From positions 192,001-256,000 of the forward strand of contig CBDCWP010000039.1 of NCBI GenBank assembly GCA_965223505.1: DNA of 64,000 bases. The letters run 5' to 3'. Under the pieces are notes generated by a model. It did no database searches. It was given only the letters and a program-made list of their open reading frames with translations, and was not told the origin of the DNA. A program made the translations under genes and the position numbers. The DNA is from Planctomycetota bacterium. Lineage in GTDB: Bacteria; Planctomycetota; PLA2; JAEUHO01. Each line of letters opens with the position of its first letter. Within the stretch, counting starts at the first letter, position 1. Positions 10,992 to 59,463 of this stretch are shown piece after piece.

Positions 10992-10994
10992 CCG

Positions 10995-38499: not shown

Positions 38500-38570
38500 G
38501 TCTCTTCGATCTTGACCGGGACTGTGACGTTCTGATCAGGGTAGCGGCTCTCTCCGGCGCTCCTCGTCGA

Positions 38571-41254: not shown

Positions 41255-41270
41255 GCTCTCCAGACTCAAC

Positions 41271-42416
41271 TCAGAAGTGTGACAGCCCGCCCAGCAACTC
41301 CATCCGGACGGGCTCGAACTCTGGCACGCCGAAGAGCCCGGGAAACCCCGCACATTCCAGGATGGTCGTTCTCAAGTACTCGATCAGAGTCGGCGCTCCC
41401 TTGGGAGCCGACATCGGCACGGCGGCTCCAGCCCATCGAAACTCCCGCCAGATCGGGTCCCAGTCTGCCCCGGGCCAGACACCATAGGCAGGGCCGCCGC
41501 TGATGTTGTCCTTGTGGTACCCGTCCGGTGAGAGGGACATCACAAAGCCGCCGTGGCCTTCGGGGATTCCCGTCGGCTCGGGGTTCTCTGCCATCCAGTC
41601 GCGATGCTCTCGGAAGTCCTCACGGACCATGTCGATCCACTCCTCCGAGATGCCGTCAATGTGCAGCGCGTCAGAGAACCCGTTCGGCCCCTCGATGCGA
41701 CGGTCTTCCCAGAACCTGCAATGCGTGTAGCCGTCCCCGTTCCCAGAGAACTCGACGAACGAGATACTCCCGACGATCCGCCAGAAGGCTGCGAGTGCGG
41801 GAGGAACCAACGCCGTCTCTGGCTCGATGAACTCCCGGATCGCGTCCTCCAGCGAGGCGATGAGAGCATCCACGTCCTGAGGTGGATCGATGACGACCGC
41901 TCTGGGATAGCCTAGGTCTGTGAGACGCCGAGCGAGTTCGATTGCCGTGGTGCGGCACCGCTTGAACAGATCCGGGGCGTTCTTCAAGGCATGTTCGGCG
42001 AGCGCGCCCCCCGCGAGAAGGTCCTCACGGAACCGTACCGAAGACTCGCGGATGTGCTCGGGGTTGGGGTGATTGCCCGAGTGCCAGTAACCGTCCTCCG
42101 CGAGGCGCTCAACGATCTCCCGGGCTCCTCTGGCGTACCAGCGGTAGTCAGGCGAGTCGTTGGCGACGTACCGGATGGCCTCGCAGCCGTACATCGTACC
42201 GAGCCGCCCGTTGGCCTCGTGGATCGCCTCAACGATGACTGACTTCAACCTGCCGATGTCGAAGGTGCCGTGATCGCAGCCTCCGATCGGATCAAGACGT
42301 ACAACCTCGGGGTCTGCCTCGGGCGTGTCGTTGATACGGAGACTGACCAAGGCGTGTCCAGGTCCCCAGATGTAGGCGACTTGGTACCAGCCGTCGAGAA
42401 GGGAGAACGAGGGCAT
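41271..42416 (-). CDS. hypothetical two-module protein (C-terminal part possibly SMI1/KNR4-like)
   Basis: VPPALAAFWRIVG, LSPDGYHKDNISGG, EYLR..GFPG motifs. Confidence 0.55.
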   Translation of the reverse strand: MPSFSLLDGWYQVAYIWGPGHALVSLRINDTPEADPEVVRLDPIGGCDHGTFDIGRLKSVIVEAIHEANGRLGTMYGCEAIRYVANDSPDYRWYARGAREIVERLAEDGYWHSGNHPNPEHIRESSVRFREDLLAGGALAEHALKNAPDLFKRCRTTAIELARRLTDLGYPRAVVIDPPQDVDALIASLEDAIREFIEPETALVPPALAAFWRIVGSISFVEFSGNGDGYTHCRFWEDRRIEGPNGFSDALHIDGISEEWIDMVREDFREHRDWMAENPEPTGIPEGHGGFVMSLSPDGYHKDNISGGPAYGVWPGADWDPIWREFRWAGAAVPMSAPKGAPTLIEYLRTTILECAGFPGLFGVPEFEPVRMELLGGLSHF

Positions 42417-42419
42417 CCG

Positions 42420-43049
42420 TCAGCCCCTCCGCTTTCGATCTTGCGCTTGACGCCCGTCCGGATGAGTCCAGAACTCACGACAAGACGGAGGCCAGTCCGG
42501 GTCTTCCCGATCGTGGATGGCGCACACCGGGCAGCCTTCCATGACCTGCCGCACTAGGGCAACTTCATCGGGGCTCGTAGGCTGCTTGTATACGATGGCA
42601 GTCAGAGTGGCCGCCTGAAGGGCAAAGAAAGCGGGCGCATCGTCAACACAGCACTCGTGCGTCAGGCACGCTTCCGGGTCTACGTAGAATCGACCCTCGG
42701 CAGCGGGCGCCATCGTGACCTTTGGATCTGCTTGCGACCGCCAGAAGTCCAAAGCACTTCCTCGAAGGTGGACCAGTATCGGATGGCCCGGCTGAGCCAG
42801 GTTCTCCAAGAAGCAGGTGCAGGCTGCTTCGTCCAACTCCCCGTCCTGTCCTCCAATCATCTCATTCAGCACTTCCGCGAGCGCCTTCCACCCCTCAGGC
42901 TGTACCTCCTTCTCCCGGACGAAGTGAGAGCAAGCGGCAAACACCCCGTGGACCGAGTCCGAGTCGAACGGGTTGTCGGTCGAGCGGACGTACGCCTGGA
43001 AGCCCTGCAGCACGGCATCGAGACGGGCGGTGAGGTCATCGGGTGTCAT
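42420..43049 (-). CDS. fusion of helical CFLENL module and single-cluster ferredoxin
   Basis: paralogous N-terminus to 41015 gene; FYVDPEACLTHECC..AP..YKQP..CPVCAI. Confidence 0.7.
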   Translation of the reverse strand: MTPDDLTARLDAVLQGFQAYVRSTDNPFDSDSVHGVFAACSHFVREKEVQPEGWKALAEVLNEMIGGQDGELDEAACTCFLENLAQPGHPILVHLRGSALDFWRSQADPKVTMAPAAEGRFYVDPEACLTHECCVDDAPAFFALQAATLTAIVYKQPTSPDEVALVRQVMEGCPVCAIHDREDPDWPPSCREFWTHPDGRQAQDRKRRG

Positions 43050-43227
43050 GATCGAGTTCGACGCCAGCCTATCCGGACCGCCTGCGCCCCGCCCGGCGAC
43101 CCGAAGTAGGCGGGGGCTGGCGGGTGCGCTCGTATCTATCGACTTCCCTACCCCTCCGATCCATGATCTGGAACATGCTCTGCGAGGGCCCAGGACCGCA
43201 CCGCCAGAGCACACGGAGACAGGGACG

Positions 43228-43443
43228 GTGACCAACGATGTGAAACGGGCCATCTTGCAGGTGCTGCGCGAGAGCGGGCCAATCGGCTGGTACGGCATCG
43301 AACTTAGGCTGCGGGTTCCACGGTCTGCGTTCGGTGACGGATACACCCTGATGACCTACGTTGAGGAGTTGATCGCGGCCGGATCTGTCGCGCGCGTCAC
43401 CGTCGATGGCGAGGAGCGCTTCGTGGCCGCCGACCAACGCTAG
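43228..43443 (+). CDS. small winged-helix-like protein
   Basis: ILQVLRESGPIGW..VEELIAAGSV pattern. Confidence 0.5.
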   Translation: MTNDVKRAILQVLRESGPIGWYGIELRLRVPRSAFGDGYTLMTYVEELIAAGSVARVTVDGEERFVAADQR

Positions 43444-43565
43444 TCTGCTGCGGGGTCCGGAGCCGCGAAAGGTCCTTTCACGCTCCAAACTGCGAGGCGC
43501 CAATCTGCAACAAGATTTCCCGGCTCGGTACGCCGTGAGGTGGCGACGGCACGGGCACGGATAGG

Positions 43566-43934
43566 TCACTCTGGCTGTCCCTCCGCCATGAGGGTCTCTA
43601 CGGATTCTCTGACACGCGGCGGCTCGATGTCATAGCCGCGCGCTCGGGCGCCGCTCCAATTGACCCCGACCTTCATGCCATCTTCGTTTAGCCCCGGCAC
43701 CCTCCGATCGCAGAACTCCTGCCACGAAACCTCATACGGCTGGAAGCCTGAATAGGCGGGGACCGTGTCGATGATGCTCTCCACGCGCGAGCGTGAAGAC
43801 CAGAAGGGCTGGGCGCGCGTGCCGTCAGAGGTCCGAGGCGCCGGGAATCCACGCTCGTCCTTCAAGGTCCACAGCACCCGTGTGCGAGCGACTTCGCGGT
43901 AGAACGCCCATGCCTGAGAACCTGCTTGGCTCAT
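43566..43934 (-). CDS. DUF2750-like protein
   Basis: FYREVA..LWTL, PFWSS, L.EDG..VGVNW. Confidence 0.7.
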   Translation of the reverse strand: MSQAGSQAWAFYREVARTRVLWTLKDERGFPAPRTSDGTRAQPFWSSRSRVESIIDTVPAYSGFQPYEVSWQEFCDRRVPGLNEDGMKVGVNWSGARARGYDIEPPRVRESVETLMAEGQPE

Positions 43935-44227
43935 GGCCCACTCGACCCCGGCTCAGTTGCGTGCAGGTACTTGCCATCGACTTCGCCGCCCTTGTACGGG
44001 CCGTCACCGGACCCGTCATCGGTGGGCTCGTCAAACCACACCCAGTAGGTGAGGCTCACCCCCTTGGGCGTGACGAGTGTCCGAGGCTGGCCCTCCTCCC
44101 ACTGTTCACCGGTGAGATTCCTGACCTCCTTGGGCCAATTGGCGACCGTGCCAGTAGTGCCGTCGGGCCACTCGGCGTGCCCGTGGATCGAGACCTTGGT
44201 TCCCGGGGGATGGACGTGATTGCTCAT
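43931..44227 (-). CDS. hypothetical SH3-like small protein
   Basis: ATGA/GTGA coupling both sides; YWVWFDEP.DDGSGDGPY. Confidence 0.6.
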   Translation of the reverse strand: MSNHVHPPGTKVSIHGHAEWPDGTTGTVANWPKEVRNLTGEQWEEGQPRTLVTPKGVSLTYWVWFDEPTDDGSGDGPYKGGEVDGKYLHATEPGSSGP

Positions 44228-44508
44228 GCGAACCCGCCGTAGTCCGGCCTCGACCAAGCCGATGACCCGTACTGTTCGCAAGGTCGAAGCCGGTTCTTGA
44301 CCATCGCTGCCCAACGGGGAGCCTCCCAGAGCACCCAGGAGATCAGGAACCAGAGCGGTACGGCGGCGAGCCAGGGCCACACGGATTCCGGACCGACCAG
44401 CGCAACGGCGGTGCCGGTCATGGCTGCGGCTGCCCCGAACAGGACGAGCGGCATCGGCGTGGAGGACACTCCCCTGACAGCACCGCACTCCCGGCATCGA
44501 GACTGCAT
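44224..44508 (-). CDS. small membrane protein with Cys motifs
   Basis: CREC, two TM helices. Confidence 0.5.
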   Translation of the reverse strand: MQSRCRECGAVRGVSSTPMPLVLFGAAAAMTGTAVALVGPESVWPWLAAVPLWFLISWVLWEAPRWAAMVKNRLRPCEQYGSSAWSRPDYGGFA

Positions 44509-44588
44509 GCATCCAGGGTACCCAGGCTGGCCTCCACGTGCGCCGTCGCGGCTCGTATCAACCGAAGCGCCATGCCATGCTTGGGGCC

Positions 44589-44789
44589 ATGAAGATCCAC
44601 CGTCACGCTCCCAATGTGTATGTCATCTCGTCGTCCGAGCCCCAGGAGGTGAAGCAGTTCTTCGAGTCGCTCGGGCTCGTGTTTCAGGCTGAGAAGCATG
44701 GTGATGGACCTGAACATGTCGCGTGCGAGCGCAACGGTGTAGTCCTCGAAATCTACCCACTCGCCGCGCCGGAGAAGTCGCCGGAGTAG
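44589..44789 (+). CDS. short VOC/glyoxalase-like protein
   Basis: FFESLGLVF..EKHGDGPEH..VLEIYP. Confidence 0.65.
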   Translation: MKIHRHAPNVYVISSSEPQEVKQFFESLGLVFQAEKHGDGPEHVACERNGVVLEIYPLAAPEKSPE

Positions 44790-44790
44790 T

Positions 44791-45390
44791 CTACGGCCAC
44801 TCGACGAGTCGCTCGGACGGGCCCTCAAGTTCGAGCCACAACCCAGGATGTGACTCGCCTGGATCACACCGGACGACACAATCGAGTTCCGCCGCAGCCG
44901 AACGAGCACAGTCTGCGTCCGTGTCCCACGGACGATGCACCGTGTTGAACCAAACGCTCAGCCAGGGACCATCTTCGATCTTGGGTGTGAGGATGATTGC
45001 GCCTGTTGAAGGGTAGAGCGCGACCGCTCCGTCGATGTCCTTGGGGCCATCGAGGGCTCCGGTGGCGGAGGACTTCACCCACTTGATGGCTCGTTCGATC
45101 GCGCAGTTACGCAGGTAGACCTCAACGTCATCCTGCCGTGCGGGATGCTCTGTCGTCTCGGCCCTGGGAGACTCCTGCTCTGGGGGCAAGACCTCCAAGT
45201 CAGCCCTCTGCACGATCTGCTCAACGTAGAGACCGTGCTCGGATCCGTCAGGCTTGTGAAACTCGACCTCGACGTGCTGCGGGTCATCGTCGAAAAGGTC
45301 CAGCACCCGTCCCACAGCGCCACGACGCAATCCCGCCTCAGGCATGTCCACACGCAGTCGCACAGGCTGGAAGAGTTGCACGATTGCCAT
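44791..45390 (-). CDS. DUF4926-like module fused to a second small module
   Basis: VRLRVDMPEAGLRRGAVG.V..EVEF; second part RQDDVEVYL..SVWF..PWDTD..CAR. Confidence 0.65.
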   Translation of the reverse strand: MAIVQLFQPVRLRVDMPEAGLRRGAVGRVLDLFDDDPQHVEVEFHKPDGSEHGLYVEQIVQRADLEVLPPEQESPRAETTEHPARQDDVEVYLRNCAIERAIKWVKSSATGALDGPKDIDGAVALYPSTGAIILTPKIEDGPWLSVWFNTVHRPWDTDADCARSAAAELDCVVRCDPGESHPGLWLELEGPSERLVEWP

Positions 45391-45601
45391 CTTCGGAGAA
45401 GCGGCCAGCGCCCGCCAGCGCGAAGGGGCTCGGAGCAACCTCCGTGAATCGTCGGCATCGATCGCGTGGCCGCGTCCATGTACCTACCACGCTTCCTATC
45501 CAGAACGGTGCCCGCCGGATGCACACGGCTGCCGCTCGTTTCCGGTCCGGCCCGTGGGCGCTCGGAGACCCGATCTCCCCGAAACGGCCCGCAGACATGG
45601 A

Positions 45602-45635
45602 GAGAGCCCGGAAGAACGGTGTCTCCCGGGCTCTC
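45602..45635 (-). terminator. hairpin immediately downstream of the displaced tRNA 3' end
   Basis: GAGAGCCCGGAAGA / TCTCCCGGGCTCTC inverted repeat, one mismatch. Confidence 0.55.
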
Positions 45636-45638
45636 AAG

Positions 45639-45681
<43 letters not shown>

Positions 45682-45932
45682 CTCCACGGTCTGATCCCTA
45701 CGCGCCTGTCTCGCTAGACAGTGGATGCTATCACCCTCCGATTGGGCACCACCACCACCTCCCGCCGCCGCGCCCTCCAACGAGGACAACGGTGAATTGG
45801 AGAGGGTAGGCCGAGCCCCAGACAACGAACCCGGCGCTAGTTCCTGAGGCTTCGAGCCGCTGTCCGGCCTGCCGCCTAGACTCCGCTACCGCGCCCACCC
45901 TTCCCGGTGCTCGCGCCACCTGGAGGGCCAAA

Positions 45933-46748
45933 GTGGCGCCTACACAGTTCCCGACCGCCGAGCTTCAGGGGATCGCCAATGCGATGCAGGAGTTCGAGGC
46001 TGGCGCTTCCGTTGCAAACACCGGCACGGGCAGCCGCCGCGAGGGGAACCAGTTTGAGAAACTCGTCGGTGAGCTTTGGACCGAAGCGGCCACCTACCTC
46101 ATCGCCAAGGGCGCCACGCCAACCAACGTCACGGGGCCGAAGGGCCACCGCTGGACGAAGCTGGAGTACGAGAGCAGGACGCTCTACCTCCCATCAGTCG
46201 ATGCGATCCCAATGGTCTCCAACCTGACGGAAGAGCGCTGGCTGGGCCTCACCTATATGGTCAGCGATCTCATCGCAGCCTTCCCGGGGGAGGCCGAGGC
46301 CATCGAGCGATACGGTCCCGACATAGGCCCCTTCCAAGGCGAGGACTACCCCAAGATGTACGGCAAACGGTCAACGAGGTTTGACGACGCCATCGTCTTG
46401 GAAGATGACGGAGTGCTCAAGGAGAAGATCCTCCTTGAATACAAGACGGCCAAGAGCACAAGCAAGCGAGCCATCGACGGCAACGCGCACGAACGCCTCT
46501 CATTCCAGGTCCTTCAATACCTCGAAATCGCTACGCGCTACACTTGCTGCACGATGGCGGTGCTCGCCAATGCAGCCTTCGTCAAGTACCTCAACAAGTA
46601 CCACGTCAGCTTCCACGTCCAGGCAGATCGGCTAGCCAACTTCAAGTGGTTCACGATGCAGCATGCCTGCACCGCGTTGGAATACGCGGGATTCGTCAAC
46701 GGCCTCTTTGACTGGTTGCTCACGGGACGCGAAAGGGAGACCAAGTAG
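45933..46748 (+). CDS. putative type II restriction endonuclease (EcoRI/MunI-like)
   Basis: FDD..LLEYKT PD-(D/E)XK core, GNAHER motif, 1 nt from MTase. Confidence 0.7.
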   Translation: MAPTQFPTAELQGIANAMQEFEAGASVANTGTGSRREGNQFEKLVGELWTEAATYLIAKGATPTNVTGPKGHRWTKLEYESRTLYLPSVDAIPMVSNLTEERWLGLTYMVSDLIAAFPGEAEAIERYGPDIGPFQGEDYPKMYGKRSTRFDDAIVLEDDGVLKEKILLEYKTAKSTSKRAIDGNAHERLSFQVLQYLEIATRYTCCTMAVLANAAFVKYLNKYHVSFHVQADRLANFKWFTMQHACTALEYAGFVNGLFDWLLTGRERETK

Positions 46749-46749
46749 A

Positions 46750-47928
46750 GTGCCCGTCAAGTACATCGGTTCCAAGCGCAAGCTCATCCCCGTCATCCTT
46801 CAAACAATCCGCGAGCTAGGTAGAGACTGCACGGTCCTCGATCTCTTCTCCGGCACGGCGCGCGTCGGCCACGCCCTCAAACGCGAGGGCTACCGCGTCA
46901 TCTCCAACGACTATCTTGCCAGCGGGAAGACCATTGCCGAGTGCTACGTCCAGGCGGATGCGGAAGACTGGCTGCGCCAAGCGGAGATGCTCGTCAACGA
47001 GTTCAACGCCATCAAGGGGGAGCCGGGCTACTTCACCGACACCTTCTGCGTGCAGAGCCGCTACTTCCAGCCCAAGAACGGTGAGCGCGTCGATGCCATC
47101 CGCGAAGAGATTGAGCGCAAGGACTTGGAGCCCGAGCTGAAGGCCATCATGCTCGTTTCACTCATGGAGGCGGCCGACCGCATCGACTCCACCACGGGCG
47201 TCCAGATGGCGTACCTCAAGAAGTGGGCCGCCCGCGCCCACAACGATCTGGAACTCCGAGTGCCGGACATCCTCCCGCGCGCCCGAGGCGGCAAAGGCGA
47301 GGCGCACCAGACTGACGCCCACACTGGCGCCGGGAACTTTGAAGCCGACATTGCGTATCTCGATCCGCCGTACAACCAGCACAGCTATCTGGGCAACTAC
47401 CACATCTGGGAGTCGCTCGTCATGTGGGACAAGCCAGAGTTCTACGGCATCGCCTGCAAGCGGATGGACTGCCGGGAGCGAAAGAGCGCGTTCAACTTCA
47501 AGCGGAAGTTCTACGAGGCATGGAGCAGGGTTGTCCGCGAGGTGAAGGCGAAGCACCTTGTTATCTCGTTCAACAACGAGGGCTACATCAAGCGCGAAGC
47601 GATGGAGAGGCTCCTCTCCCGTCGCGGCGAAGTCTTGGTCATCGAGAACGACTACAAGCGCTACGTCGGTGCGCAAATCGGCATCCACAACCTCAAGGGC
47701 GAGCGCGTTGGCGAGGTGAGCCACCTTCGCAACAAGGAGTACATCTACGTCGTCAGCCCCGAGCGCGCCATCAGGGAGACGGAAGCGCAGACTAACGGGA
47801 CGCCCGTGCCGGACGCGACCCCTGAGCCCGACCCGAAGCCGAAACCCTCCCGCGTCTGCGAACACCTGCCCGAGCGCAAGCCCACCGGGCTCCCGGTCAA
47901 AGGGAAGCAGCTAGACCTGTTTTCGTAG
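46750..47928 (+). CDS. N6-adenine DNA methyltransferase (D12/alpha class)
   Basis: KYIGSKRKL, LDLFSGT, YLDPPY. Confidence 0.9.
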   Translation: MPVKYIGSKRKLIPVILQTIRELGRDCTVLDLFSGTARVGHALKREGYRVISNDYLASGKTIAECYVQADAEDWLRQAEMLVNEFNAIKGEPGYFTDTFCVQSRYFQPKNGERVDAIREEIERKDLEPELKAIMLVSLMEAADRIDSTTGVQMAYLKKWAARAHNDLELRVPDILPRARGGKGEAHQTDAHTGAGNFEADIAYLDPPYNQHSYLGNYHIWESLVMWDKPEFYGIACKRMDCRERKSAFNFKRKFYEAWSRVVREVKAKHLVISFNNEGYIKREAMERLLSRRGEVLVIENDYKRYVGAQIGIHNLKGERVGEVSHLRNKEYIYVVSPERAIRETEAQTNGTPVPDATPEPDPKPKPSRVCEHLPERKPTGLPVKGKQLDLFS

Positions 47929-48096
47929 CAGGCTCGCCATTCCGCCCGAAGAGGTCGAAGACGCATCGGAAGTGCAAGTGCTCAGCGCGGGTCTGGGCCA
48001 TGCTGTTTCCCCGCGCAACCTGGATAGGTGCAAGCGAGGCATCATATACCAGCGAGCAGAGTGGCCCGTGGGGCCAAGCGATTGCAAGGCATTGGC

Positions 48097-50250
48097 CTAG
48101 GTGGCAACCACCCAGGTCGTGAAGCGCCCGGCGACGCTGGCAGACGGCCTCTTGTCTGTGTCCCAGCCGTTCTCGCCAAAGATCGATGTCATGGCTTGCG
48201 GCACGAGCCTATAGGCGACGTCATCTCGGTCCTCCATGACGTCGGGCAACTCCTCCTTGATCCTCTCCAAGACGCCGCGCCACGGGACCCCTCGCTCCCT
48301 GATCCGCTCGATGAATGCTTCATCTTCCTGAACTGCGCGAATTGCGGCTGACTGATAGGTGGCAAGTGCGTCTTCGGGTTCATCGGCATCGGCGAACGGG
48401 TCTTCGTCGGGCTCAGCGCTAGGGGGCTCCGCAGGTTCCACAGGTTCCCCGGACACCTGAGGCACTGGCGCCTCGGCTGGAGCAGGGGCTGACCGCTTCG
48501 AGGCGAGTGCGCTCGCGAACCTCTGTTCGAGCTTTACCGCAGCGGTCTCGACAGCGCCCATCTCGTAGTTCGGGTCTCGTGTTTCGTAGAGGCCCTCGAA
48601 CAGCATCACCCTAAGAGGAATCGGATAGCTCTTCCCTCCCACGCTGCTCCAGAAGACGCCATGTCCTGGAATCGGCTCGTTCAGAAGCGAAGACAGTATG
48701 TCGTTGCTGAAGTGCGCATTTGCCTTCCGAACCGCTTGAAGATCACCGGCTGACAGCAGATGGAAGATGAACCAGTTGTCCCCCTGGCTCAGGATTTCGT
48801 GCGTAATCGCGCCCGGCTGCTGGGTGATCAACACTGCTCCTAGGTCGTACTTGCGTCCCTCCTTGACCCACTCTACGTATGGCCCCTCGCCAGAGCTTCC
48901 GCGCGATCCCAAGACCGACTGCGCCTCCTCCACGACAGCGATCACCGGCACAGTCTGGGGATCCGCCTTCGTGAATTCTTGCTGGTTTCGATCGAAGATC
49001 CGGCGCAGGATCAAGCCAGACAGCACAAGGGCTGGAGTCCCGCGCATTTGAGAGACATCGACGATGCAGATGCAGCCCTGTGCTAGGGCCGCGAAGAGCA
49101 TGTCGATCAACTGGCTGCTTGGATCGTGGAGCATTCGCACGACAGTTGTCATGTTGGCTCTCGCCGCGACCATTTCCGCGTCTTGACCATCCTCCAAGCG
49201 CATGAGGCGCCTGACAGTGTTCCCGTCAGCACCATTGCCGTCGCGATGTATGAGATCTACTAGCTCCTTCCAATCCGCGTCGTTCAGCCCTTTCAACTTC
49301 CGGACGTTCTGCTGCTCCTGTTTTTCGGGCGTGAGTGCGATGGAGAGCACATCACTGGGACGGAGTCGGCGGATGTCCAGTCGGATGTCGCCAGCAACGA
49401 ACGACTGGTAGAACGGACTAGGTCCACTCTTTGGAGTGAAGACTACTACTCGGTCCTCCAGCGCCGGAACGTCACAGAGCCCCGGCCGGTTCTTGTCGTC
49501 CGGCCAGAAGTACTCCCCATCCGGATCGAAGATCAAGGTCCCGACGGGTACCTCCCGCCCTCCACGTTTGGGAACCGTCGGCGTATCCGCGTAGAGGTCA
49601 GCGAACAGCAGCTTGACGAGATTCGACTTGCCGAAGCCTGCGCGCGCAAACACGAGTGTGCGACGGGCCACGAGGTGCGACACTTCGAATCGGGGAACGA
49701 CGCAAGGTGCCTTGATCTGCATCCAAGGCTGCGACTCGAATCGCGAATCGCCCGATGCGTAGACGAACTCGCCCAGCGCAAGGTGTCCAAGCTCGGCGGC
49801 ACCGGCTGAGTTGTGACCAGCTACTTCTTGCAGCACGTCGTCCGGAAGGAAGCCAACCTTGCTGCCGACGTGCGGCAACCGACGATGCGATGCCGCAAAG
49901 ATCAGGTTGCCGTTCTCCACGCGCAGGACACCGAGAACTCGCATGTTGATCCGGTACTTGAGGTACTGCTCGCGTAGATCCTCCGGTACGACGCGCTCCT
50001 CTGAGACGGCCCGAATCCCGTAGTCCTCTCCAGCGGGAGATGCGAGTCGGCCTTGGGACGCGATCGAAGTGATGCGTCCCAGCACAGCCTCCTCATCGTG
50101 CTCCAACTGGACAAGAAGGAACTGCCCGTGCATCGGGATGCTCTGGAATTCGCTCCGATACGGCAGAATGAGGTCAGCGTGAAACTCCATGCCTCCTTCG
50201 CTGAATCCCCTGAAGATCCCGACGGTCGTCGCACGGGTAAATAGATTCAC
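48097..50250 (-). CDS. herA: HerA/FtsK-superfamily ATPase (DUF87)
   Basis: N-terminal HAS-barrel-like region, ARAGFGKS Walker A, IFDPDGEY, VVEEAQ Walker B, KEGRKY, TQQP. Confidence 0.85.
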   Translation of the reverse strand: MNLFTRATTVGIFRGFSEGGMEFHADLILPYRSEFQSIPMHGQFLLVQLEHDEEAVLGRITSIASQGRLASPAGEDYGIRAVSEERVVPEDLREQYLKYRINMRVLGVLRVENGNLIFAASHRRLPHVGSKVGFLPDDVLQEVAGHNSAGAAELGHLALGEFVYASGDSRFESQPWMQIKAPCVVPRFEVSHLVARRTLVFARAGFGKSNLVKLLFADLYADTPTVPKRGGREVPVGTLIFDPDGEYFWPDDKNRPGLCDVPALEDRVVVFTPKSGPSPFYQSFVAGDIRLDIRRLRPSDVLSIALTPEKQEQQNVRKLKGLNDADWKELVDLIHRDGNGADGNTVRRLMRLEDGQDAEMVAARANMTTVVRMLHDPSSQLIDMLFAALAQGCICIVDVSQMRGTPALVLSGLILRRIFDRNQQEFTKADPQTVPVIAVVEEAQSVLGSRGSSGEGPYVEWVKEGRKYDLGAVLITQQPGAITHEILSQGDNWFIFHLLSAGDLQAVRKANAHFSNDILSSLLNEPIPGHGVFWSSVGGKSYPIPLRVMLFEGLYETRDPNYEMGAVETAAVKLEQRFASALASKRSAPAPAEAPVPQVSGEPVEPAEPPSAEPDEDPFADADEPEDALATYQSAAIRAVQEDEAFIERIRERGVPWRGVLERIKEELPDVMEDRDDVAYRLVPQAMTSIFGENGWDTDKRPSASVAGRFTTWVVAT

Positions 50251-51410
50251 GAGTACCTCCGCCCCGACACATCGCTCTTCAACTGAATGCCCTCGAAGAG
50301 TTCGCGCTCCTCATCGCCGAGGAGACTGCGGACGGCGCCAGACACTTCGTCCTGGAGTATGTCGAGGTCGAAGTCCACCACCTCTGCGTGCTCGTGTGCC
50401 TTCTGAAGGCATCGCGGGTAGAGCGGAACTGGAAACCCGTCCGTGGCATCCGCCAGCAGATAGGCGAACACCTCGGCGGCGCTGCCCGACTGGCTACTCA
50501 GGAGATCGACGGGCCAGATCGGATCGCCATCGCGTTCACCAAACCTCACGAGGTACATATCCCCTGCCACGAACTTTGGCGCTTCTCCCGCCGCCCCTTC
50601 TTCTTCGCTGCCGCGAGCGTACTCGGGCCAGACGTACGCCTTCGCCTCGATCGCACGCGGGACGCGCACGTACCGAGGGGATCCCGCTGCAAGCACCTTC
50701 TCCAGGGCCAGAGCCAAGCCGTACCGCACCAGCACCTTGCTGTGTTTGGCCAAGCCGACAAGGAACACGCGCCGCCTGTGGTCTGCGTGAATCCGCTCGA
50801 TGGCAGATTCGATTCGGCGCCGGAAGTCGATGAACAACTCTCCTCGGAATACTTTGCTCCGCAACAGCCCGTCCCGGACCATGAGGGTGTCGGTCGCAAA
50901 CTCGCGGTAGCAGATCCGCTCGTAGAGTGCCGCCCACTCACACAGGTCACGGTAGACGAGCACCCACGATGGCGAGATTGAGTGCGGCTCTTCCCGCACC
51001 CGCCTGCCTGAGGGGATCATGTGGCTGAGCCGCGTGAGGGTCCTCGGCTCGCTCAAGAGATCAGCCATGAGCGTGCCCAGAGCGGTCTGGGGTTCCCCAT
51101 GTTCATCAAACTGGGCGCGGCTCAGCGCATCCGTATCCGTGGTCGGCGTGACGGCGTCGAGGCACAACTGCTCACCGTACGAATCGACGACTCTCACGAG
51201 TTGCACGTGAAAGGGATCGAACACCAGTTTGTTGTTTCCGCCGTCGCTTGCAACAAGCGACACAGATGTCGTCGTTCGAGGTCGGATAGTGCGAGCTTCT
51301 GGCCGCAATACGCGAACGTCCGCCCGAAGCTCATCGAGAATCCGCCTGTCCCTAACTGTGGCGTTGCGAATCGCCGCGCGCAGGCCAGGAAGTTCGGCAG
51401 GGTCAAACAT
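50247..51410 (-). CDS. nurA: NurA-like nuclease
   Basis: ASDGG, E, RDGLL, GLAKHS, YPRCLQKAH; coupled to HerA. Confidence 0.72.
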   Translation of the reverse strand: MFDPAELPGLRAAIRNATVRDRRILDELRADVRVLRPEARTIRPRTTTSVSLVASDGGNNKLVFDPFHVQLVRVVDSYGEQLCLDAVTPTTDTDALSRAQFDEHGEPQTALGTLMADLLSEPRTLTRLSHMIPSGRRVREEPHSISPSWVLVYRDLCEWAALYERICYREFATDTLMVRDGLLRSKVFRGELFIDFRRRIESAIERIHADHRRRVFLVGLAKHSKVLVRYGLALALEKVLAAGSPRYVRVPRAIEAKAYVWPEYARGSEEEGAAGEAPKFVAGDMYLVRFGERDGDPIWPVDLLSSQSGSAAEVFAYLLADATDGFPVPLYPRCLQKAHEHAEVVDFDLDILQDEVSGAVRSLLGDEERELFEGIQLKSDVSGRRYS

Positions 51411-52608
51411 GCCAGCCCCTCCACTTTGCGGTCACATCGATCTCACGCACGGGGTCGCTCGCGGAGGCAGAAAACTGCCTCGATTGGCGCTTGCCACTTG
51501 ACGCGGAGCCTGCGTCACGAACCGAGGTGACCCTCCATCGCCCACCGACTCCACGAAGCGACTCTCGGATCATCTCCTCAGGGTCAACAGGGAGACAGGG
51601 CAAGCAGCCGAATCTCACTACGAGCGTGGCATTCCGGGCACACACACCCGCAACATTCTTCCAGACCGTGCGTAGCTCCCTCACGAACTCCGCCTCGGTG
51701 TGCTGGAGTTGAGCGTCCTGTGCGTAGTCCACTCGTGGCGGGCCTCCCAGGAACCAGTTCCTTAGCCACTGATCTGGGACGTATGTGCGCATGCCGAAGT
51801 AGGGAGGCGACGTCACTACCCAATCGAACTGTGTGCTCATGCTCGCCGCAAGCTCAGTAGTCCTAGCGTCCGCCTGCACAACAGCACCTCTTGTCGGTGC
51901 CGGTAGGCTCTCCAAGCAGAAGCGCGCCCGACGCGAAATGGCGTCGAGAACATCTACCCTCGGCGGACGAGATAGAGCATTCCGCCCCCAGTAGCCCAGC
52001 GCAGGTCCTGGCTTTGTGGCGTACGTCCTTGGCATCTGATTCGAGAGGTACGTCGGTAGTCCCTTGTTCATCGGGCCGTGGAGGATGCCCAAGACGAGCG
52101 CTCTCAAGATGACGTCTGTCTGCGTGCGCACGCCCTCCAGGAAGGCGTCACGGAGCCTGCAAATGTCTCGCAAGGTCGATGGCGCGTAGCAGCTTCGCCA
52201 GAACTTCCCGGTCGGCGTGGAGCCTGGGACCCGATCGTTGATCAACTCGACTGCGCGATCAACGACGTCATCTGGCGTTGCTGACGCCAGCTTTGCCGCA
52301 GCAACGGCGGCGGCGACTGGGCTACTATCGATGCCAACGGTGGGCAGTCCGAGTAGGCGCGCGGCAAACGTCGTCGTCCCCCGGCCACAGAACGGATCCA
52401 ACACCCACTGTCCCGGAGTAGCTCTCTCTAGCGCGGACAGGGGGAACTCCACTGGGAACATCGTGTAGTAAGGGCATATCGTGTGAAGGCGCATCGACTT
52501 GCCGCTCGTCGTCGGTGCAGACGATGGCGGCCTAGGTGTCACCCGCCGCCTAAATGCAACGGGGCGAGCCGAGGACCGTGCTTCGGAGAATGTGACACCG
52601 TCAACCAA
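51403..52608 (-). CDS. amino-DNA methyltransferase (SPPY, probably N4-cytosine); start may be 52494
   Basis: PYYTMFP, VLDPFCGRGTT, VTSPPY. Confidence 0.85.
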   Translation of the reverse strand: MVDGVTFSEARSSARPVAFRRRVTPRPPSSAPTTSGKSMRLHTICPYYTMFPVEFPLSALERATPGQWVLDPFCGRGTTTFAARLLGLPTVGIDSSPVAAAVAAAKLASATPDDVVDRAVELINDRVPGSTPTGKFWRSCYAPSTLRDICRLRDAFLEGVRTQTDVILRALVLGILHGPMNKGLPTYLSNQMPRTYATKPGPALGYWGRNALSRPPRVDVLDAISRRARFCLESLPAPTRGAVVQADARTTELAASMSTQFDWVVTSPPYFGMRTYVPDQWLRNWFLGGPPRVDYAQDAQLQHTEAEFVRELRTVWKNVAGVCARNATLVVRFGCLPCLPVDPEEMIRESLRGVGGRWRVTSVRDAGSASSGKRQSRQFSASASDPVREIDVTAKWRGWHV

Positions 52609-52886
52609 ACCAGCAGACCTCTCACGCCACGATTACGACCGACTCCACGCCCTTCACGTGGCGCACAAGCATATTGGCGCCGTCGGACTGCGGCATAGCC
52701 CCGAAGTCAACCGCCAGACGCCTGACAGTTCAGGGATTCATGATCCCCTTCGAAGTGCTGGCGCGCTCGCCGGACCGGATCGCTCGCCAGCCCCAAGAAC
52801 TGGCCACTTCAGGAGAATCTGAGAAACATCGCCGTGCCGTCCTGGAGGCCCGCATTTGACCTCGTGGCGCCAAAGGACGCCGCGAC

Positions 52887-53117
52887 ATGCCCAAGAACAA
52901 CCCCAAGCAGGACCCGGACGGGCTCTTCACCCTGGAGAGAGCCGCCGCGTACCTCACCATCTCCCAGAGGACCCTTCGCTCGCATCGACAACTGGGACTG
53001 ATCCCCGTCGTCCAGGTCAGCAAGCGCCGAATCGCTTTCGACAAGGCCGATCTCGACGCCTACCGCGAGCAGCAAAAGCAGCGCGGCCCACGCCGTCGCT
53101 TCGGGAGGCGGTCATGA
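52887..53117 (+). CDS. excisionase-like helix-turn-helix protein
   Basis: LFTLERAAAYLTISQRTL..G.IP..RIAFDKADLDAY. Confidence 0.8.
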   Translation: MPKNNPKQDPDGLFTLERAAAYLTISQRTLRSHRQLGLIPVVQVSKRRIAFDKADLDAYREQQKQRGPRRRFGRRS

Positions 53118-54550
53118 TTCCGCCTCGGGGACTTGGCCAAAGTGGGAATCGTGGCCAACTGGGGGACGCGATGACCAACGCATCTCCTCGACTCCCGCTC
53201 GCCGGTGTGATCGAAGCGCGCGCCGCCTCCGTGCCCAAGAAGAAGATCAAGCGCAGGCCCAAGGCTCCCACCGGCCTCTACCGACCCCCGTACGTCTGCA
53301 AGAAGTGCGACGTCTGCGTCCGGCGGAAGGCGAAGCAGGCCAAGAAGGGCGAGCGCTGCCTGGAACCGAAGAGGGTGAGGACCTGGTGGTACCGCAAGTC
53401 GATTCGCGGAGTCCGCCGCAAGCCAGTAAGCACAGGCTGCACGGATCTCCGCAACGCCATCGAGGTCGCGGCCCAGCTACGCGATGAGTGGGAACGGCAA
53501 GCAGTCGGGCTCAAGCGCCGTGGCCGCATGAGCATCGAGGAGGCCAAGGAGGGCTTCCGTAAGTACCTCACGACGCAGAAGGGCAGCCCCCAGTACATCG
53601 ACACGCAGATGGGTTACTTGGACGAAGTGCTCATCGCCGCCGGGATCCGCTTCGTAGACGAACTCGACGAGGGGGTCTTTGCTGACTGGCTTCCGATCGC
53701 CAAGAAGAAGAGGCTTCGGGCTCGCGGGAAGAACGTACGCCTCTACCCCCTCAAGCGCCTGGGAGAGTGGCTGCTCAAGAAGGGCGAGTGCATCGATCCC
53801 TTCGCGCTGCTTGTGCCCTACGACGAGGAGAAGGACCGCGCCCACGTCCGACGGGCCATGTGGCCGGGAGAGTGCGCTCGGTTCCTGAAAGCCGTGAGGA
53901 CACGTCAGATCGAGCGGGCTCGGGAGTACCGGGTGCGCGCGGGTCTCTCGCGTGGGGCCATGATCAAGATGCGGCGTGAGGGCCGAGTCCGGGCGCTGGT
54001 CTACAACACGGTGGCCCAGACGGGGCTGCGGCGCAAGGAGACGCGGCTGCTCCTGATCAAGAACGTGGACTTCGACGCCGGGGTCATCTGGATCCCCCAA
54101 GGCGTGGCGAAGTCCAGACACGAGCAGTACGTGCGGCTCAACAGCGATCTGGCTCGGCGCCTGAAGTCATACCTCCGGACGCTCGGTGATGTGTCCGACG
54201 AATCGCCCCTCTTCCCAGCGACCAGGACGCACTCGGGCAAGCGCGCGCCGAAGTCGGCCGTCCCCACGATCAAGACGTTCGACAAGGACCTGGAGGCTGC
54301 GGGCCTGCCTAAGAAGGACGCCCGCGACCGCGTCCTGGACTTCCACGCCCTCCGGATGACCTACATTACGCACCTTCGTGTAGCGGGCGTCGAGCTAGGA
54401 ATGGCGAAGCGGTTGGCCCGACACTCCGACATCAAATTGACCGAGGACATCTACACGGACTTCGACCTGATGGCTGGGCCGGAGCGCGAGGCCGCCGAGA
54501 TGCTGGTGCCGGAGCGGCGGCGGCAGCGGTTCGTGCCGGAGGTGAGGTAG
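53114..54550 (+). CDS. tyrosine recombinase/integrase, intact catalytic set
   Basis: GGAGG RBS, ATGA overlap with xis; TGLR, K, FHALR, RHSD, IY; N-terminal Cys cluster. Confidence 0.9.
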   Translation: MIPPRGLGQSGNRGQLGDAMTNASPRLPLAGVIEARAASVPKKKIKRRPKAPTGLYRPPYVCKKCDVCVRRKAKQAKKGERCLEPKRVRTWWYRKSIRGVRRKPVSTGCTDLRNAIEVAAQLRDEWERQAVGLKRRGRMSIEEAKEGFRKYLTTQKGSPQYIDTQMGYLDEVLIAAGIRFVDELDEGVFADWLPIAKKKRLRARGKNVRLYPLKRLGEWLLKKGECIDPFALLVPYDEEKDRAHVRRAMWPGECARFLKAVRTRQIERAREYRVRAGLSRGAMIKMRREGRVRALVYNTVAQTGLRRKETRLLLIKNVDFDAGVIWIPQGVAKSRHEQYVRLNSDLARRLKSYLRTLGDVSDESPLFPATRTHSGKRAPKSAVPTIKTFDKDLEAAGLPKKDARDRVLDFHALRMTYITHLRVAGVELGMAKRLARHSDIKLTEDIYTDFDLMAGPEREAAEMLVPERRRQRFVPEVR

Positions 54551-54551
54551 G
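54482..54551 (+). repeat. 70-bp direct repeat, copy 1 (integrase 3' end)
   Basis: 65/70 identical to 56029-56098. Confidence 0.9.
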
Positions 54552-55233: not shown

Positions 55234-55935
55234 TTAGTTGCCCTCAGCTACGCCCAGCACCTTCCGAACGTGCTGAGCTTTCACGTCGTAGGTGTAGTCC
55301 GCCGCCGAGAGCAGTGACCTTGCCTGCCCAGCGATCTCGCCCCCCGCCAAGTCCAGGAAGCGAGGTACCGCAACCATGCGGCCTTGGTTCTTCACCGCCT
55401 TGATTGCCGGGATGAAATCGGCATCGCCGGAGACGACAACGGCGATTTCGTAGATCGGAGCAAGTGTCACCATCTCGACGGCCATGGCAACGTCAAGCCC
55501 CTTCTCCTTGCCCCACGTTTCGTCGCTCGCTTTGAAGAAGCGGTGCCCGACGGGCCGGAACTCGATGTACGGACATGAACGCTCGATCTCCCGGATGTGG
55601 TTGCGAGCCTTCACCCACAGTTTCCCTGCTTTGTCTCTAAGGTCGTCTCGCCGATCCTCCGCAAGATCCCAGTGGCCCTGAAGTTCGAAACCCTCGGGGA
55701 TGTACCAGTAGCAGCGAACGAGGTGCGCGGGGGAATACTGCCAAGCACTGTCAGCCAGCATCTGCCAGAGCGTTGTCCAGTAGTACTCCGACGGCCAGGG
55801 ATCACCTGCTGGATCGAAGCTGGATACGATCTGCGCGAACAGATTCCGGAAGTTCGTGCTGTCTACGAACACGCATGTGCGGGGCTTCTGGGGCGGCCCG
55901 CCTGTCCCTTGGGGCGGGAAGCCTGCTCCAGCCAT
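55234..55935 (-). CDS. NYN-domain (PIN-fold) ribonuclease
   Basis: VFVDSTN, EKGLDV, VSGDADF, G..V. Confidence 0.85.
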   Translation of the reverse strand: MAGAGFPPQGTGGPPQKPRTCVFVDSTNFRNLFAQIVSSFDPAGDPWPSEYYWTTLWQMLADSAWQYSPAHLVRCYWYIPEGFELQGHWDLAEDRRDDLRDKAGKLWVKARNHIREIERSCPYIEFRPVGHRFFKASDETWGKEKGLDVAMAVEMVTLAPIYEIAVVVSGDADFIPAIKAVKNQGRMVAVPRFLDLAGGEIAGQARSLLSAADYTYDVKAQHVRKVLGVAEGN

Positions 55936-56028
55936 GGGATCCTCCAGGGAACGCGCCGCGACGATTAGCAGTTCCCGTGGCGCTTGGCCCAGCACTGTAC
56001 TCGGGTCTACCCCGGCTGCGGTTGCCCC

Positions 56029-56098
56029 GAGCGCGAGGCGGCCGAGATGTTCGTGCCGGAGCGGCGGCGGCAGCGGTTCGTGCCGGAGGCGCGGTAGG
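56029..56098 (+). repeat. 70-bp direct repeat, copy 2 (orphan integrase 3' end)
   Basis: encodes EREAAEMFVPERRRQRFVPEAR* versus EREAAEMLVPERRRQRFVPEVR*. Confidence 0.9.
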
Positions 56099-56142
56099 GG
56101 CTACGACTGCATCTCCTGCCGCAGAACAGACGGGCTATCGGG

Positions 56143-56784
56143 TTAGGCGTCCGCGTCCTCACCCGGGTGGAACGGCCGCTCCTCTGCGATCGTGAGCGGT
56201 GGGAGGTCCTTCTGGCAGATGTGCATGCTGTCGCCCTCTTGCCTGCTCCATTGGCCGGTTCTGAGGGACACGACGAAGTTAACGTAGTCAACCGTCGGCG
56301 ATAGCTGCGCAGGGAGTTCCGACATCAGGGCTTCGAGATCACGATACGTACCCAGGAACTCCTGCTCGTCGAGGCTCCAGTCCATGTGAGCGCTGATCTT
56401 GTTGCGCACCTGCTTGAGCGCTCCCATGTGCAGATCGGCGGCCTTCGTGAGGTCGTAGAGCGCCGTCTCGCGCTCGATGTCCTTCTCGGCTTGCCCGCGC
56501 CATCCCACCGACTGGAACCACTGGTGGAACTTCTTGACCGAGTCCAAGAGGGAGTAGGCCGCGACGACGAGCGCCTTCTTGACCGCGACAAGTTGGCTCG
56601 CATCAGTCTGGCCGTTGGCCACCGCGATCATGGCGGAGACATCCTCTGTCGCGATGGCGAGACGGTGGAGGCGACGGGCGTTCTTGTCGATCGGCTGCCA
56701 GAACGATGGCCCCGGGCGATGCACGGGGTGGAAGTAAGGCACGCCGCCAAGCGCACCGCCTGAGTCGTGAGGTGAGGCTCGCAT
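56143..56784 (-). CDS. putative HEPN-domain protein (start uncertain)
   Basis: helical protein with RNKISAH. Confidence 0.55.
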   Translation of the reverse strand: MRASPHDSGGALGGVPYFHPVHRPGPSFWQPIDKNARRLHRLAIATEDVSAMIAVANGQTDASQLVAVKKALVVAAYSLLDSVKKFHQWFQSVGWRGQAEKDIERETALYDLTKAADLHMGALKQVRNKISAHMDWSLDEQEFLGTYRDLEALMSELPAQLSPTVDYVNFVVSLRTGQWSRQEGDSMHICQKDLPPLTIAEERPFHPGEDADA

Positions 56785-56844
56785 AGCGCGGCCCAAGGTA
56801 GCGCTCCGCACCGACCGGGCGTCGAGCGCCCACCATCGGGGGAC

Positions 56845-57597
56845 TTACGACAGCCGCCGCCGCAGCGCCGGAGGCGCGTCCTCCCTGGCCTCGGGACCGC
56901 GCCAGACCTCCTCGAAGTCGCGCTCGCCCATGGCCCACCGGATGTCAGCCGGGCCACGAAAAAGATCGTCGGGAACAGGGCGAACCGCATGGGGGTTCTC
57001 GTAGACGGTGACCCAGGGCAGGGACTCGACAGGATCGGGCTCGCTGGTGACGAGGTCCAGATACGCCCTTGACCGCATGCCGTCAGCGTCTGCCAGCCGC
57101 CGGAGTTCGACAGCGTGCCGCTCCTCGGCCAAGTCACGGATGCCGAGGACGACCACAGCCGACACACGGGTGTTCGACCGCTCCGTCAGAATCGCCGGGC
57201 GATCGACGGGCCCGCCCCCGAATGCCGCGAGAAGGACGGCGGCGGGAAAGTCGAACACGGCGTCGGGTCGTCCCGCATTGCACAGGGCGACGTAGCACCC
57301 GTGGTCCGTGAACGCCTTGAACTTCTTCAGGGCGTCCTTGATGCGCGACCACGGCACCTTCGTGTAGTCCAAGGACCCGCCCGGGAGGTGGTCGTAGTTG
57401 GTGGGGGCCGGGCAGTCCTTCACTTCGCAGAGGAGGAGGCCGGTGGCGTGCTCGATGCCGTAGTCCGGCCCGCGATGCTGCTGGCCCGGGGGCGGCGGTG
57501 GCAGTCCCGGACGCGGTTCTCGAAGCAGGTCCGGGTACCCGATCGAGTCCATGTACTCCTCGAAGAGGCGTTCGGAGGGGCGGTCGTTGTTGTCCAC
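56845..57597 (-). CDS. PD-(D/E)XK-like nuclease
   Basis: E..F..Y, PDY, CEVKD, YENP. Confidence 0.65.
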   Translation of the reverse strand: MDNNDRPSERLFEEYMDSIGYPDLLREPRPGLPPPPPGQQHRGPDYGIEHATGLLLCEVKDCPAPTNYDHLPGGSLDYTKVPWSRIKDALKKFKAFTDHGCYVALCNAGRPDAVFDFPAAVLLAAFGGGPVDRPAILTERSNTRVSAVVVLGIRDLAEERHAVELRRLADADGMRSRAYLDLVTSEPDPVESLPWVTVYENPHAVRPVPDDLFRGPADIRWAMGERDFEEVWRGPEAREDAPPALRRRLS

Positions 57598-57647
57598 GGT
57601 GGAAGCGTACCGGCTCTGGCCGACGGGTGGAAATGCGACCGCTGGGC

Positions 57648-58299: not shown

Positions 58300-58440
58300 T
58301 CAGCCCTCTGCCTGATCAGGCGGAAACTCGTCAGCCGTTGGCGGGCGCACCGAGCCGACACGCCTCGGTGCCGAAGCCCCCATCTCCCGGTAGTTCTTGC
58401 GGGCCTCGTTCAGACTGACTGGGTTCGGGCCAACCGCCCG
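58300..58440 (-). pseudogene. C-terminal remnant of a CPCC-family gene
   Basis: GPNPVSLNEARKNYREMGA..VRPP..DE, similar to the CPCC module near 40150. Confidence 0.6.
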
Positions 58441-59216
58441 GTCGGGACGCGCTCTGACCGAAGGAGAACTGACACAGCTCCTCGACGTGGCCCGCCAAAG
58501 ACCGGTGCTAGACGCCACCACCATCCGCCGGGGTGCTCGGAAGGGACAGCGAGTGGCCCGGATCAGTGACAAGACTCGGCGAGACAAGGAGCGGTTGGGG
58601 CTGGAGCGGGCCTTGATCTACAAGACGCTCGTCTTGACTGGATTGAGACGAAACGAACTCGCGTCGCTCACCGTCGCCTCTCTCGTTCTCGATGCCCCGG
58701 TCCCGCATCTTGTCCTCGACGCGCGCGATGAGAAGAACCGTCAGGGCGCTGAGATCCCCCTCAGAGCGGACCTTGCCGCCGACCTAGCGCAGTGGACAGA
58801 CGAGACTCTTCAACGCGCCAGAGCAGCAGCCAGAGCGTCAGGCGAAGCCGTCCCGGCTCGCCTCCCCGCAGATGCGCCGCTCTTCTACGTTCCCAAGGCG
58901 CTCGTCAAGATTCTTGACCGTGACTTGAAGTTGGCCGGGATCGCCAAGAAGGACAATCGTGGGCGCAGCGTCGACATCCACGCGCTCCGGCACAGCTTCG
59001 CAAGTCACCTCAGCAAGGGCGGCGTCGCACCGCGAACCGCGCAGGCCGCGCTACGACACAGCGACATCAATCTCACGATGGTCACCTACACGGATCCTGC
59101 GTTGCTGGACGTAGCGGGCGCGTTGGATGCCCTGCCGTCCCTATCCCTCGGCGAGGAGGCCTCTGACCGGGCACGTGCAGGGACCGGCACCGATGGCAAG
59201 ACCGAAGCGTCGGGAC

Positions 59217-59240
59217 CGCTTGCACCAACGCTTGCACCAA
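59217..59240 (+). repeat. 12-bp tandem repeat CGCTTGCACCAA x2, candidate integrase arm-type sites
   Basis: perfect duplication about 150 bp inside the att core. Confidence 0.55.
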
Positions 59241-59361
59241 ACTGGCACAAGCGTGGGCAATCGCTGTCAACGCCTGACAAAGCTGAGAGCTTCAATGCGA
59301 GTGCGAGGAAGCGCCGCGCATCGCCACCGAGCCGCAAGAAGTTGGCTGCTGCGGCCATTGG

Positions 59362-59380
59362 CTCCCCCCGGGAGGGGGAG
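59362..59380 (-). terminator. hairpin downstream of tRNA-Pro
   Basis: CTCCCCC-cggga-GGGGGAG. Confidence 0.45.
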
Positions 59381-59386
59381 AGAGAA

Positions 59387-59463
<77 letters not shown>

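Follow-up and report, generated by a model that had tools for sequence, protein, structure and literature searches.

A 64,000-nt window of a Planctomycetota bacterium genome (contig CBDCWP010000039.1, assembly GCA_965223505.1) holds three overlapping minus-strand genes for an amino-methyltransferase, a NurA-fold nuclease and a HerA-family ATPase. We propose that this cassette is a methylation-gated, TdpAB-like restriction system, and we put the probability of this reading, which is drawn from sequence, at roughly 0.55. The genes are coupled, their products fall into recognizable families and folds with intact catalytic motifs, and the three travel together on mobile DNA. A first-pass annotation had suggested an undescribed anti-phage system in which the methyltransferase marks self and NurA-HerA degrades unmarked DNA. 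Self-marking by methylation is indeed the likeliest role for the methyltransferase, but copies of the cassette that lack this gene count against the simple form of the idea. The annotation's picture of a conserved unit in defence-rich surroundings, without repair partners, is supported. Overlooked at that stage, and new here, are a winged-helix-like domain on the ATPase, alternative partners of the methyltransferase, and repeated loss of the methyltransferase.

The three open reading frames (ORFs) were confirmed in the window at 51403-52608, 50247-51410 and 48097-50250, and both overlaps are as first described: the methyltransferase and nuclease genes share 8 nt (ATGTTTGA, 51403-51410), and the nuclease and HerA genes share GTGA (50247-50250). 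The call of a NurA-type nuclease also holds. Motifs I-III, as defined in PMC13748450, are present as SDGG (D56), RDG (D180) and AHEHA (H339), and residues D56, G57, G58, G181 and R184 are at least 90% conserved in a diverse alignment (A2). Taken alone, the nuclease has no significant match in Pfam, PADLOC (2023) or NCBIfam (June 2026), and it has none in a plasmid collection. The Pfam NurA model is matched by 13 of 65 nuclease homologues at E ≤ 0.1 (best 6.2e-10), and a 65-sequence nuclease profile has TdpB (8wet_G, E 8.7e-13) as its sole significant match in the PDB. The structural model (predicted local distance difference test, pLDDT, 91.7) places TdpB at the top (Foldseek E 1.4e-11; VIA Z 23.9, root-mean-square deviation (rmsd) 4.1, 326 aligned), with the archaeal and Deinococcus repair NurA proteins next (VIA Z 10-14). 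Sequence identity to TdpB is about 20%. A weak match to His_Phos_1 (E 0.015) is ruled out by the fold.

The best PDB match of the ATPase is TdpA (E 1.9e-19). Its Walker A (ARAGFGKS), Walker B (VVEEAQ) and KEGRKY motifs are conserved in 69 sequences. The first-pass annotation had assigned the family correctly and noted an atypical Walker A; within the family this sequence is the norm, being exact in 66 of the 69 (ARAGYGKS in two, ARAGFCKS in one). TdpA has similar surroundings (FGKTGFGKSN), and the two share an RRT..F..xGFGKSN region. TdpA ends at residue 586, opposite residue ~557 of the ATPase, beyond which the ATPase has a variable linker and then a conserved 93-residue domain. In the window's ATPase this domain has no Pfam match, no Atlas match and no Foldseek match at E ≤ 0.001. 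As modelled (pLDDT 95.7), it is likely a winged helix. Its best VIA matches, which are modest, are RFX5 (Z 7.0, rmsd 2.8, 76 aligned), Cdt1-CTD (Z 6.3) and RFX-DBD (Z 6.0), and the list is dominated by what we take to be winged-helix proteins. Basic residues (K/R) are conserved at 700, 701 and 704, on the wing.

The upstream gene had been called an SPPY amino-methyltransferase, and its motifs agree: DPFCGRGTT (DPFCGRG at 71) and TSPPY (at 266, both in the numbering of the 401-aa frame), the latter in 62 of 62 sequences. It also matches PADLOC MTase_II (E 1.5e-16). The motif order, FxGxG, target region, SPPY, is that of the alpha class. Since M.DraR1, an N4-methylcytosine (m4C) enzyme, has the same order (PMC6712171), the product is likely m4C. 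The central segment is nearly invariant across the family. The 5ʹ end of the gene is uncertain: the protein has 401 aa from the TTG at 52608, the start first proposed, or 363 aa from an ATG at 52494, the form in the public gene call (P0271).

How firmly are the three genes linked? In a scan of species-representative genomes the nuclease had 189 relatives, spread over Bacteroidota, Actinomycetota, Planctomycetota, Bacillota, methanogenic archaea and other groups. We retained the best 80; because the scan used a closer alignment (A3), these sample only the near clade (44-76% identity). HerA sequence lies 3ʹ of the nuclease in 78 of these 80 loci, and the remaining two end at a contig edge. Four of the loci have damaged HerA copies, which are interrupted by a 2.6-kb insert, missing in large part or frameshifted (L016:8149-12935, L074, L084 and L070). 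The orthologous methyltransferase is intact in 61 of the 80 (58 upstream, 3 downstream), broken in 3, absent from 14 and cut by the contig end in 2; an intact gene thus flanks NurA-HerA in 61 of 78 informative loci. The reverse search, from the methyltransferase, gave 77 full-length metagenome copies: 56 were linked to NurA/HerA, 11 were unlinked and 10 were uninformative. Hence, with those 10 and 3 partial copies set aside, 56 of 67 informative loci are linked. The order methyltransferase-nuclease-HerA accounts for 45 of the 56, nuclease-HerA-methyltransferase for 7 and divergent arrangements for 4, so linkage has been kept through rearrangement. This is the outcome of the neighbourhood survey that the first-pass annotation had suggested, and the majority of homologues keep the methyltransferase. 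Across 81 loci, no fourth gene recurs in more than 7. Septu is the commonest neighbour: in seven related Bacteroidota loci a PtuAB pair lies 3ʹ of HerA, in the same orientation and no more than about 12 bases away (L040, L042, L044, L046, L050, L051 and L052; about 10300-12950).

The evolutionary distances of the three proteins are correlated. For 53 sequences, the methyltransferase-nuclease and methyltransferase-ATPase matrices correlate at r 0.71 and r 0.78 (0 of 999 permutations), to which shared host ancestry contributes, and the nuclease-ATPase correlation is r 0.93. About half of the supported splits in the methyltransferase tree agree with the nuclease and ATPase trees.

The cassette is mobile and foreign to its host. 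Its nuclease was found in 0 of 60 relatives searched, the GC content of the trio is 61% against 67% for the genome, and the genes lie in a 13.7-kb island at tRNA-Pro, delimited by identical 43-nt repeats of which there are just two copies genome-wide. The integrated element postulated earlier is thereby borne out. Phages carry relatives as well. In one prophage (L107) the trio sits between terminase and capsid genes. Two near-identical phage contigs (L001 and L002) have a whole methyltransferase, a nuclease cut off after residue 195 and no HerA (L001:3411-5476, and likewise in L002); here the methyltransferase has possibly been retained as protection. The L001 contig also has RecE/RecT and DnaC/DnaD-like genes.

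In its strong sense the term "undescribed" does not stand, since both the nuclease and the motor fall in the TdpAB lineage (PDB 8wet, 8wfd and 8y1k). TdpAB reportedly degrades unmodified phage DNA. TdpABC (An et al. 2025, Nat Chem Biol, doi 10.1038/s41589-024-01832-w) is a phosphorothioate restriction-modification (R-M) system in which modification needs tdpC alone (PMC12914056, PMC13223576). The likeness extends from the nuclease (TdpB in sequence and fold) and the ATPase (TdpA in sequence) to the three-gene layout of writer, motor and nuclease, with the methyltransferase in the place of the writer TdpC (PMC12914056). However, the writer of the cassette is a PF01555 amino-methyltransferase rather than TdpC, and no other flanking gene is conserved. 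The ATPase is ~160 residues longer and ends in the winged-helix-like domain that TdpA lacks, and identity is low.

SIR2-HerA and DUF4297-HerA also use a HerA motor in defence, and the ATPase matches their models weakly (PADLOC E 3.6e-18; NF042943 and NF042944 at 49 and 21 bits, against cut-offs of 800 and 850). In contrast to those systems, the partner here is a NurA-fold nuclease, and there is no SIR2 or DUF4297 match. Other HerA/FtsK defence systems are described in PMC10853773 and PMC12839542, in the available text of which the word NurA is absent. None of the libraries searched has the trio as a named system, and it was not found named as a defence system in the literature searched, which covered few subscription journals. 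Iyer et al. (2004) may already have mentioned methylase-linked HerA-NurA operons.

We propose that the methyltransferase marks host DNA and that HerA-NurA, as a TdpAB-like machine, would draw in DNA without the mark and degrade it. The mark may be m4C at one short, family-wide site, as the FxGxG...SPPY order and the nearly invariant central segment suggest. By homology with the TdpAB and archaeal HerA-NurA structures, a HerA hexamer would feed duplex DNA into a NurA dimer. The winged-helix domain might read the site or its methylation state and gate loading, by analogy with TraB and with FtsK-gamma, a domain that gates its motor. A precedent for motor gating by the TraB domain is described in PMC5365140. 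The target would be phage or plasmid DNA. The machine would also need a second cue, for example a free DNA end, and would not be simply lethal to unmethylated chromosomes.

Several observations weigh against methylation-gated restriction. Among them are the 14 of 78 informative loci that lack the methyltransferase and keep a nuclease with its acidic catalytic residues. In twelve of these loci HerA is full-length and its motifs are intact (in the other two it is damaged), and the winged-helix domain is retained. A full-length methyltransferase orthologue was not found elsewhere in these 14 genomes, many of which are incomplete; the best other match is at 33%, across residues 4-253. On a tree judged by eye, the absences are scattered over about eight distinct branches. 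The methylase-less nucleases are under purifying selection (dN/dS <0.31), though it is weaker: dN/dS is 0.13-0.31 in 6 of 6 methylase-less pairs and 0.04-0.10 in the 6 computable of 9 methylase-bearing pairs (three were saturated), with the caveats that pairs overlap and that high GC can inflate the ratio. One genome marked unpublished (G003, locus L064) supplies one of the 14 loci and one of the dN/dS pairs. A classical restriction enzyme could not survive loss of its methylase this often; because methylase-less copies persist, the machine probably requires another cue as well, for instance a DNA end. In addition, 9-10 of 29 supported splits in the methyltransferase tree (about a third) conflict with the nuclease and ATPase trees, and the winged-helix match is modest (Z 7). 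Finally, the defence setting that had been claimed is reflected in PADLOC matches: around 52 complete loci, 38 of 133 nearest neighbours matched, compared with 7 of 101 genes taken from the host as controls (Fisher p 2e-5), but these controls come from one genome and the related loci are not independent. Without seven Septu pairs the count is 24 of 119 (p 0.006). Several of the matches are to generic domains, and the ORFs were chosen mechanically.

The methylase-less loci favor the alternative that survives best, which we nonetheless consider unlikely: that NurA-HerA is a stand-alone defence nuclease triggered by DNA ends, with the methyltransferase a loose accessory that gates nothing. Loss of the methyltransferase on several branches, with catalytic motifs and purifying selection kept, is what this alternative would lead one to expect, and co-evolution is far tighter between nuclease and ATPase than between either and the methyltransferase. 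Against it stand the survival of linkage through several gene arrangements, the tight translational coupling, and selection on the nuclease that appears relaxed where the methyltransferase has been lost.

The stand-alone alternative also draws on the fact that the methyltransferase pairs with unrelated partners. Fourteen of the 27 unlinked copies, from viruses and metagenomes, lie next to a ~1,420-aa superfamily 1 (SF1) helicase gene, although helicase-linked methyltransferases include many close relatives (13 of 15 in one clade). Nine adjoin a DUF262/NsnA-like gene, with a RiboL-PSP-HEPN partner observed in 7, two adjoin a PD-Lambda-5_A-like gene and one adjoins type III-B CRISPR (Cmr) genes; beside the last, nothing was recognized. 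It has been proposed that DUF262 Menshen operons act together with methylases (PMC12065111), and PD-lambda-5 is a compact RM+Abi system (PMC9519451). Exchange of the writer among effectors of this sort is easier to square with a self-mark than with a role in transfer. The idea that the viral methyltransferases are orphan anti-restriction genes is dropped, as another partner lies beside 15 of the 16 viral copies classed as "unlinked".

Two of these associations are themselves candidates for new systems, judging by gene order and domains. The helicase (~1,415-1,510 aa, AAA_11/AAA_12) stands beside the methyltransferase in L087, L088, L092-L103, L195 and L206, often at prophage edges, and has only partial matches to Mokosh and DpdJ models; together they may form a two-gene system. 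In the Bradyrhizobium plasmid locus L087 (5598-8077), an anti-phage dGTPase gene immediately precedes the methyltransferase. Elsewhere the methyltransferase heads an operon with a GmrSD_N/DUF262 (NsnA-like) gene followed, where the contig reaches, by RiboL-PSP-HEPN (L104, L106, L164, L177, L181, L190, L191, L198, L200, L201 and L203), which may be another system. The PD-Lambda-5_A-like genes are at L174:4446-6014 (E 4e-123) and L109:3781-4944 (E 5e-18).

A further alternative is that the cassette is a DNA-donation (transjugation-like) module that spreads the island or host DNA, like the tdtA operon of ICEth1 in Thermus thermophilus HB27. The 14.9-kb ICEth1 occupies the 3ʹ end of a tRNA gene, has 47-bp repeats and carries an integrase and a restriction enzyme; its operon encodes a type IIG enzyme, a 377-aa NurA-like protein, the 568-aa HerA-like TdtA and a 410-aa PF01555 methylase (PMC5365140). 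Publication of this operon as DNA-donation machinery further limits the claim that the trio is undescribed. Mutants in nurA and tdtA lose DNA donation (PMC5365140), and it must be counted against a restriction function that the gene set is needed for donation whereas loss of the methylase has a minor effect (PMC5365140, PMC7767461). The two elements share, at the family level, the coupled NurA-like, HerA-like and methylase genes, as well as an island layout of ~14 kb with tRNA integration, direct repeats, a tyrosine integrase and a restriction enzyme. The ICEth1 operon order, nuclease-HerA-methylase, is that of 7 of the 56 linked metagenome cassettes, and the C-terminal helix-turn-helix-like domain of the cassette's translocase recalls TraB.

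Donation is nevertheless a still weaker prospect. The type IIG restriction-methylase (Tth111II/TthHB27I) that heads the ICEth1 operon and is required there has no counterpart: upstream of the cassette are excisionase and integrase genes, and the restriction enzyme of the island is a 271-aa convergent enzyme. No DNA-binding domain is reported for the shorter TdtA, and donation is the function that was tested in ICEth1. The neighbors of the cassette are enriched for defence, a related trio sits in a prophage head module, and the methyltransferase swaps among defence-type partners. We take T. antranikianii to be the source of Tdp. The listed homologues of TdtA include one from this species (PMC5365140 / PMC7767461), and Tdp and ICEth1 TdtA may be one lineage. 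The cassette belongs to neither: it lacks both TdpC and a type IIG enzyme, and its ATPase has an additional C-terminal domain.

Could NurA-HerA instead resect breaks made by the convergent type II enzyme or by a nearby nuclease system? The first-pass annotation had raised the former, and an R-M pair does, as had been described, converge on the cassette; it lies 168 bp away. PADLOC identifies it as type II (REase_II, and MTase_II at E 2.5e-150), and R-M systems of types I and III, Septu and further nuclease systems lie beside some relatives. However, the pair has no homologue in 82 related loci, and 28 of 52 loci have no PADLOC match among their nearest neighbors. The GC at third codon positions of the pair (0.80-0.86) differs from that of the trio (0.69-0.74), so the two probably arrived separately. 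Since no fourth gene is conserved, the neighboring restriction enzyme is not a member of the cassette. Resection on behalf of such neighbors is thus very doubtful. Least credible of all is a double-strand-break repair unit like archaeal or Deinococcus HerA-NurA, with which the cassette shares the RNase H-like fold, motifs I-III, an adjoining HerA and weak matches to NCBIfam repair-HerA models, but from which it differs in being mobile, patchy (0 of 60 relatives), foreign in codon GC, attached to a methyltransferase and structurally closer to TdpB (Z 23.9 versus 10-14), with an ATPase far below the repair-HerA cut-off (52 versus 800 bits), no Mre11/Rad50 recognized in library scans of 11 island proteins, in agreement with the first-pass annotation, and no Mre11-like motif pair in 802 flanking proteins.

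Features of the cassette and its island (window positions)
Feature	Position	Strand	Evidence
Alpha-class amino-methyltransferase, likely m4C	51403-52494	minus	PF01555 E 6.6e-12
NurA-fold (RNase H-like) nuclease, TdpB lineage, 387 aa	50247-51410	minus	profile, model, Foldseek, VIA
HerA/FtsK-family ATPase, TdpA lineage, 717 aa	48097-50250	minus	PF01935 E 1.5e-16
ATPase C-terminal domain, residues 625-717, likely winged helix with basic wing	48100-48378	minus	model, VIA
Left attachment repeat, copy of tRNA-Pro 3ʹ end	45639-45681	no strand	43-nt identical repeat
Type II restriction endonuclease, island neighbor outside the cassette, 271 aa	45933-46748	plus	PADLOC REase_II E 3.8e-31
D12-class adenine methyltransferase of the R-M pair, neighbor	46750-47928	plus	PF02086 E 2.4e-35
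Excisionase-like gene, divergent from the cassette	52887-53114	plus	phrog_66 E 2.8e-8
Tyrosine integrase, divergent from the cassette	53111-54550	plus	PF00589 E 6.7e-15
Second tyrosine-integrase frame, runs into tRNA gene, probably partial	58397-59545	plus	PF00589 E 2.3e-15
Right attachment repeat, tRNA-Pro 3ʹ end	59386-59428		43-nt identical repeat
tRNA-Pro(CGG)	59386-59463	minus	contains right attachment repeat

The D12 methyltransferase has an open frame from 46663 and a GTG start one base past the endonuclease stop; a paralogue, 61% identical, lies on the same contig outside the window (G000:C39:331043-332041). The trio and R-M pair are spanned unbroken by contigs of two public runs of one sample (45652-53491 and 45652-54535). 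No attL-attR joint was seen in contigs of four runs, a result uninformative on excision. A sigma-70 promoter scan gave 0 sites, and terminator-like sites occur at chance frequency. Also within the island are a NYN-domain gene (PF01936 E 1.4e-11) and a weak HEPN_AbiU2 match (E 0.009), at 55234-56811.

To the left of the island, 34918-45638 is a second lower-GC block (0.64) with many short unknown genes. It begins at a 13-nt match to the tRNA-Pro end, carries two transposase copies (35283-36254 and 38687-39928), which we take to be IS256-like, and is possibly an older island in tandem. Integrase-tail remnants (54479-54551, 56026-56098 and 35006-35042) and the duplication at 87% of part of the 56845-57711 gene in this block (36292-36591 / 57314-57613) suggest repeated integrations. 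A tandem array of about 30 copies of a 33-bp unit occupies 30582-31664.

What might methylation gating mean beyond this locus? In a broader and more tentative form of the proposal, the cassette would be a restriction system of an undemonstrated kind: HerA with tethered winged-helix domains would load at unmethylated sites and shred DNA via the NurA dimer, and the m4C methyltransferase would be a shared writer for at least four unrelated effectors (NurA-HerA, the 1,420-aa SF1 helicase, DUF262 plus HEPN, and the PD-Lambda-5_A-like protein). One mark would then license a family of undescribed defence systems, and TdpABC would be a sulfur-based, and the ICEth1 operon a repurposed, offshoot of the same chassis. 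If methylation gating holds, what a single motor-nuclease chassis reads is either sulfur in the backbone (Tdp) or a methyl group on a base. The sensing of a self mark by a ring translocase would become directly testable, with the winged-helix domain and the SPPY motif as handles, and the "DNA donation" operon of ICEth1 might be examined as a repurposed defence system. The methyltransferase, in turn, points to two more uncharacterized partner modules.

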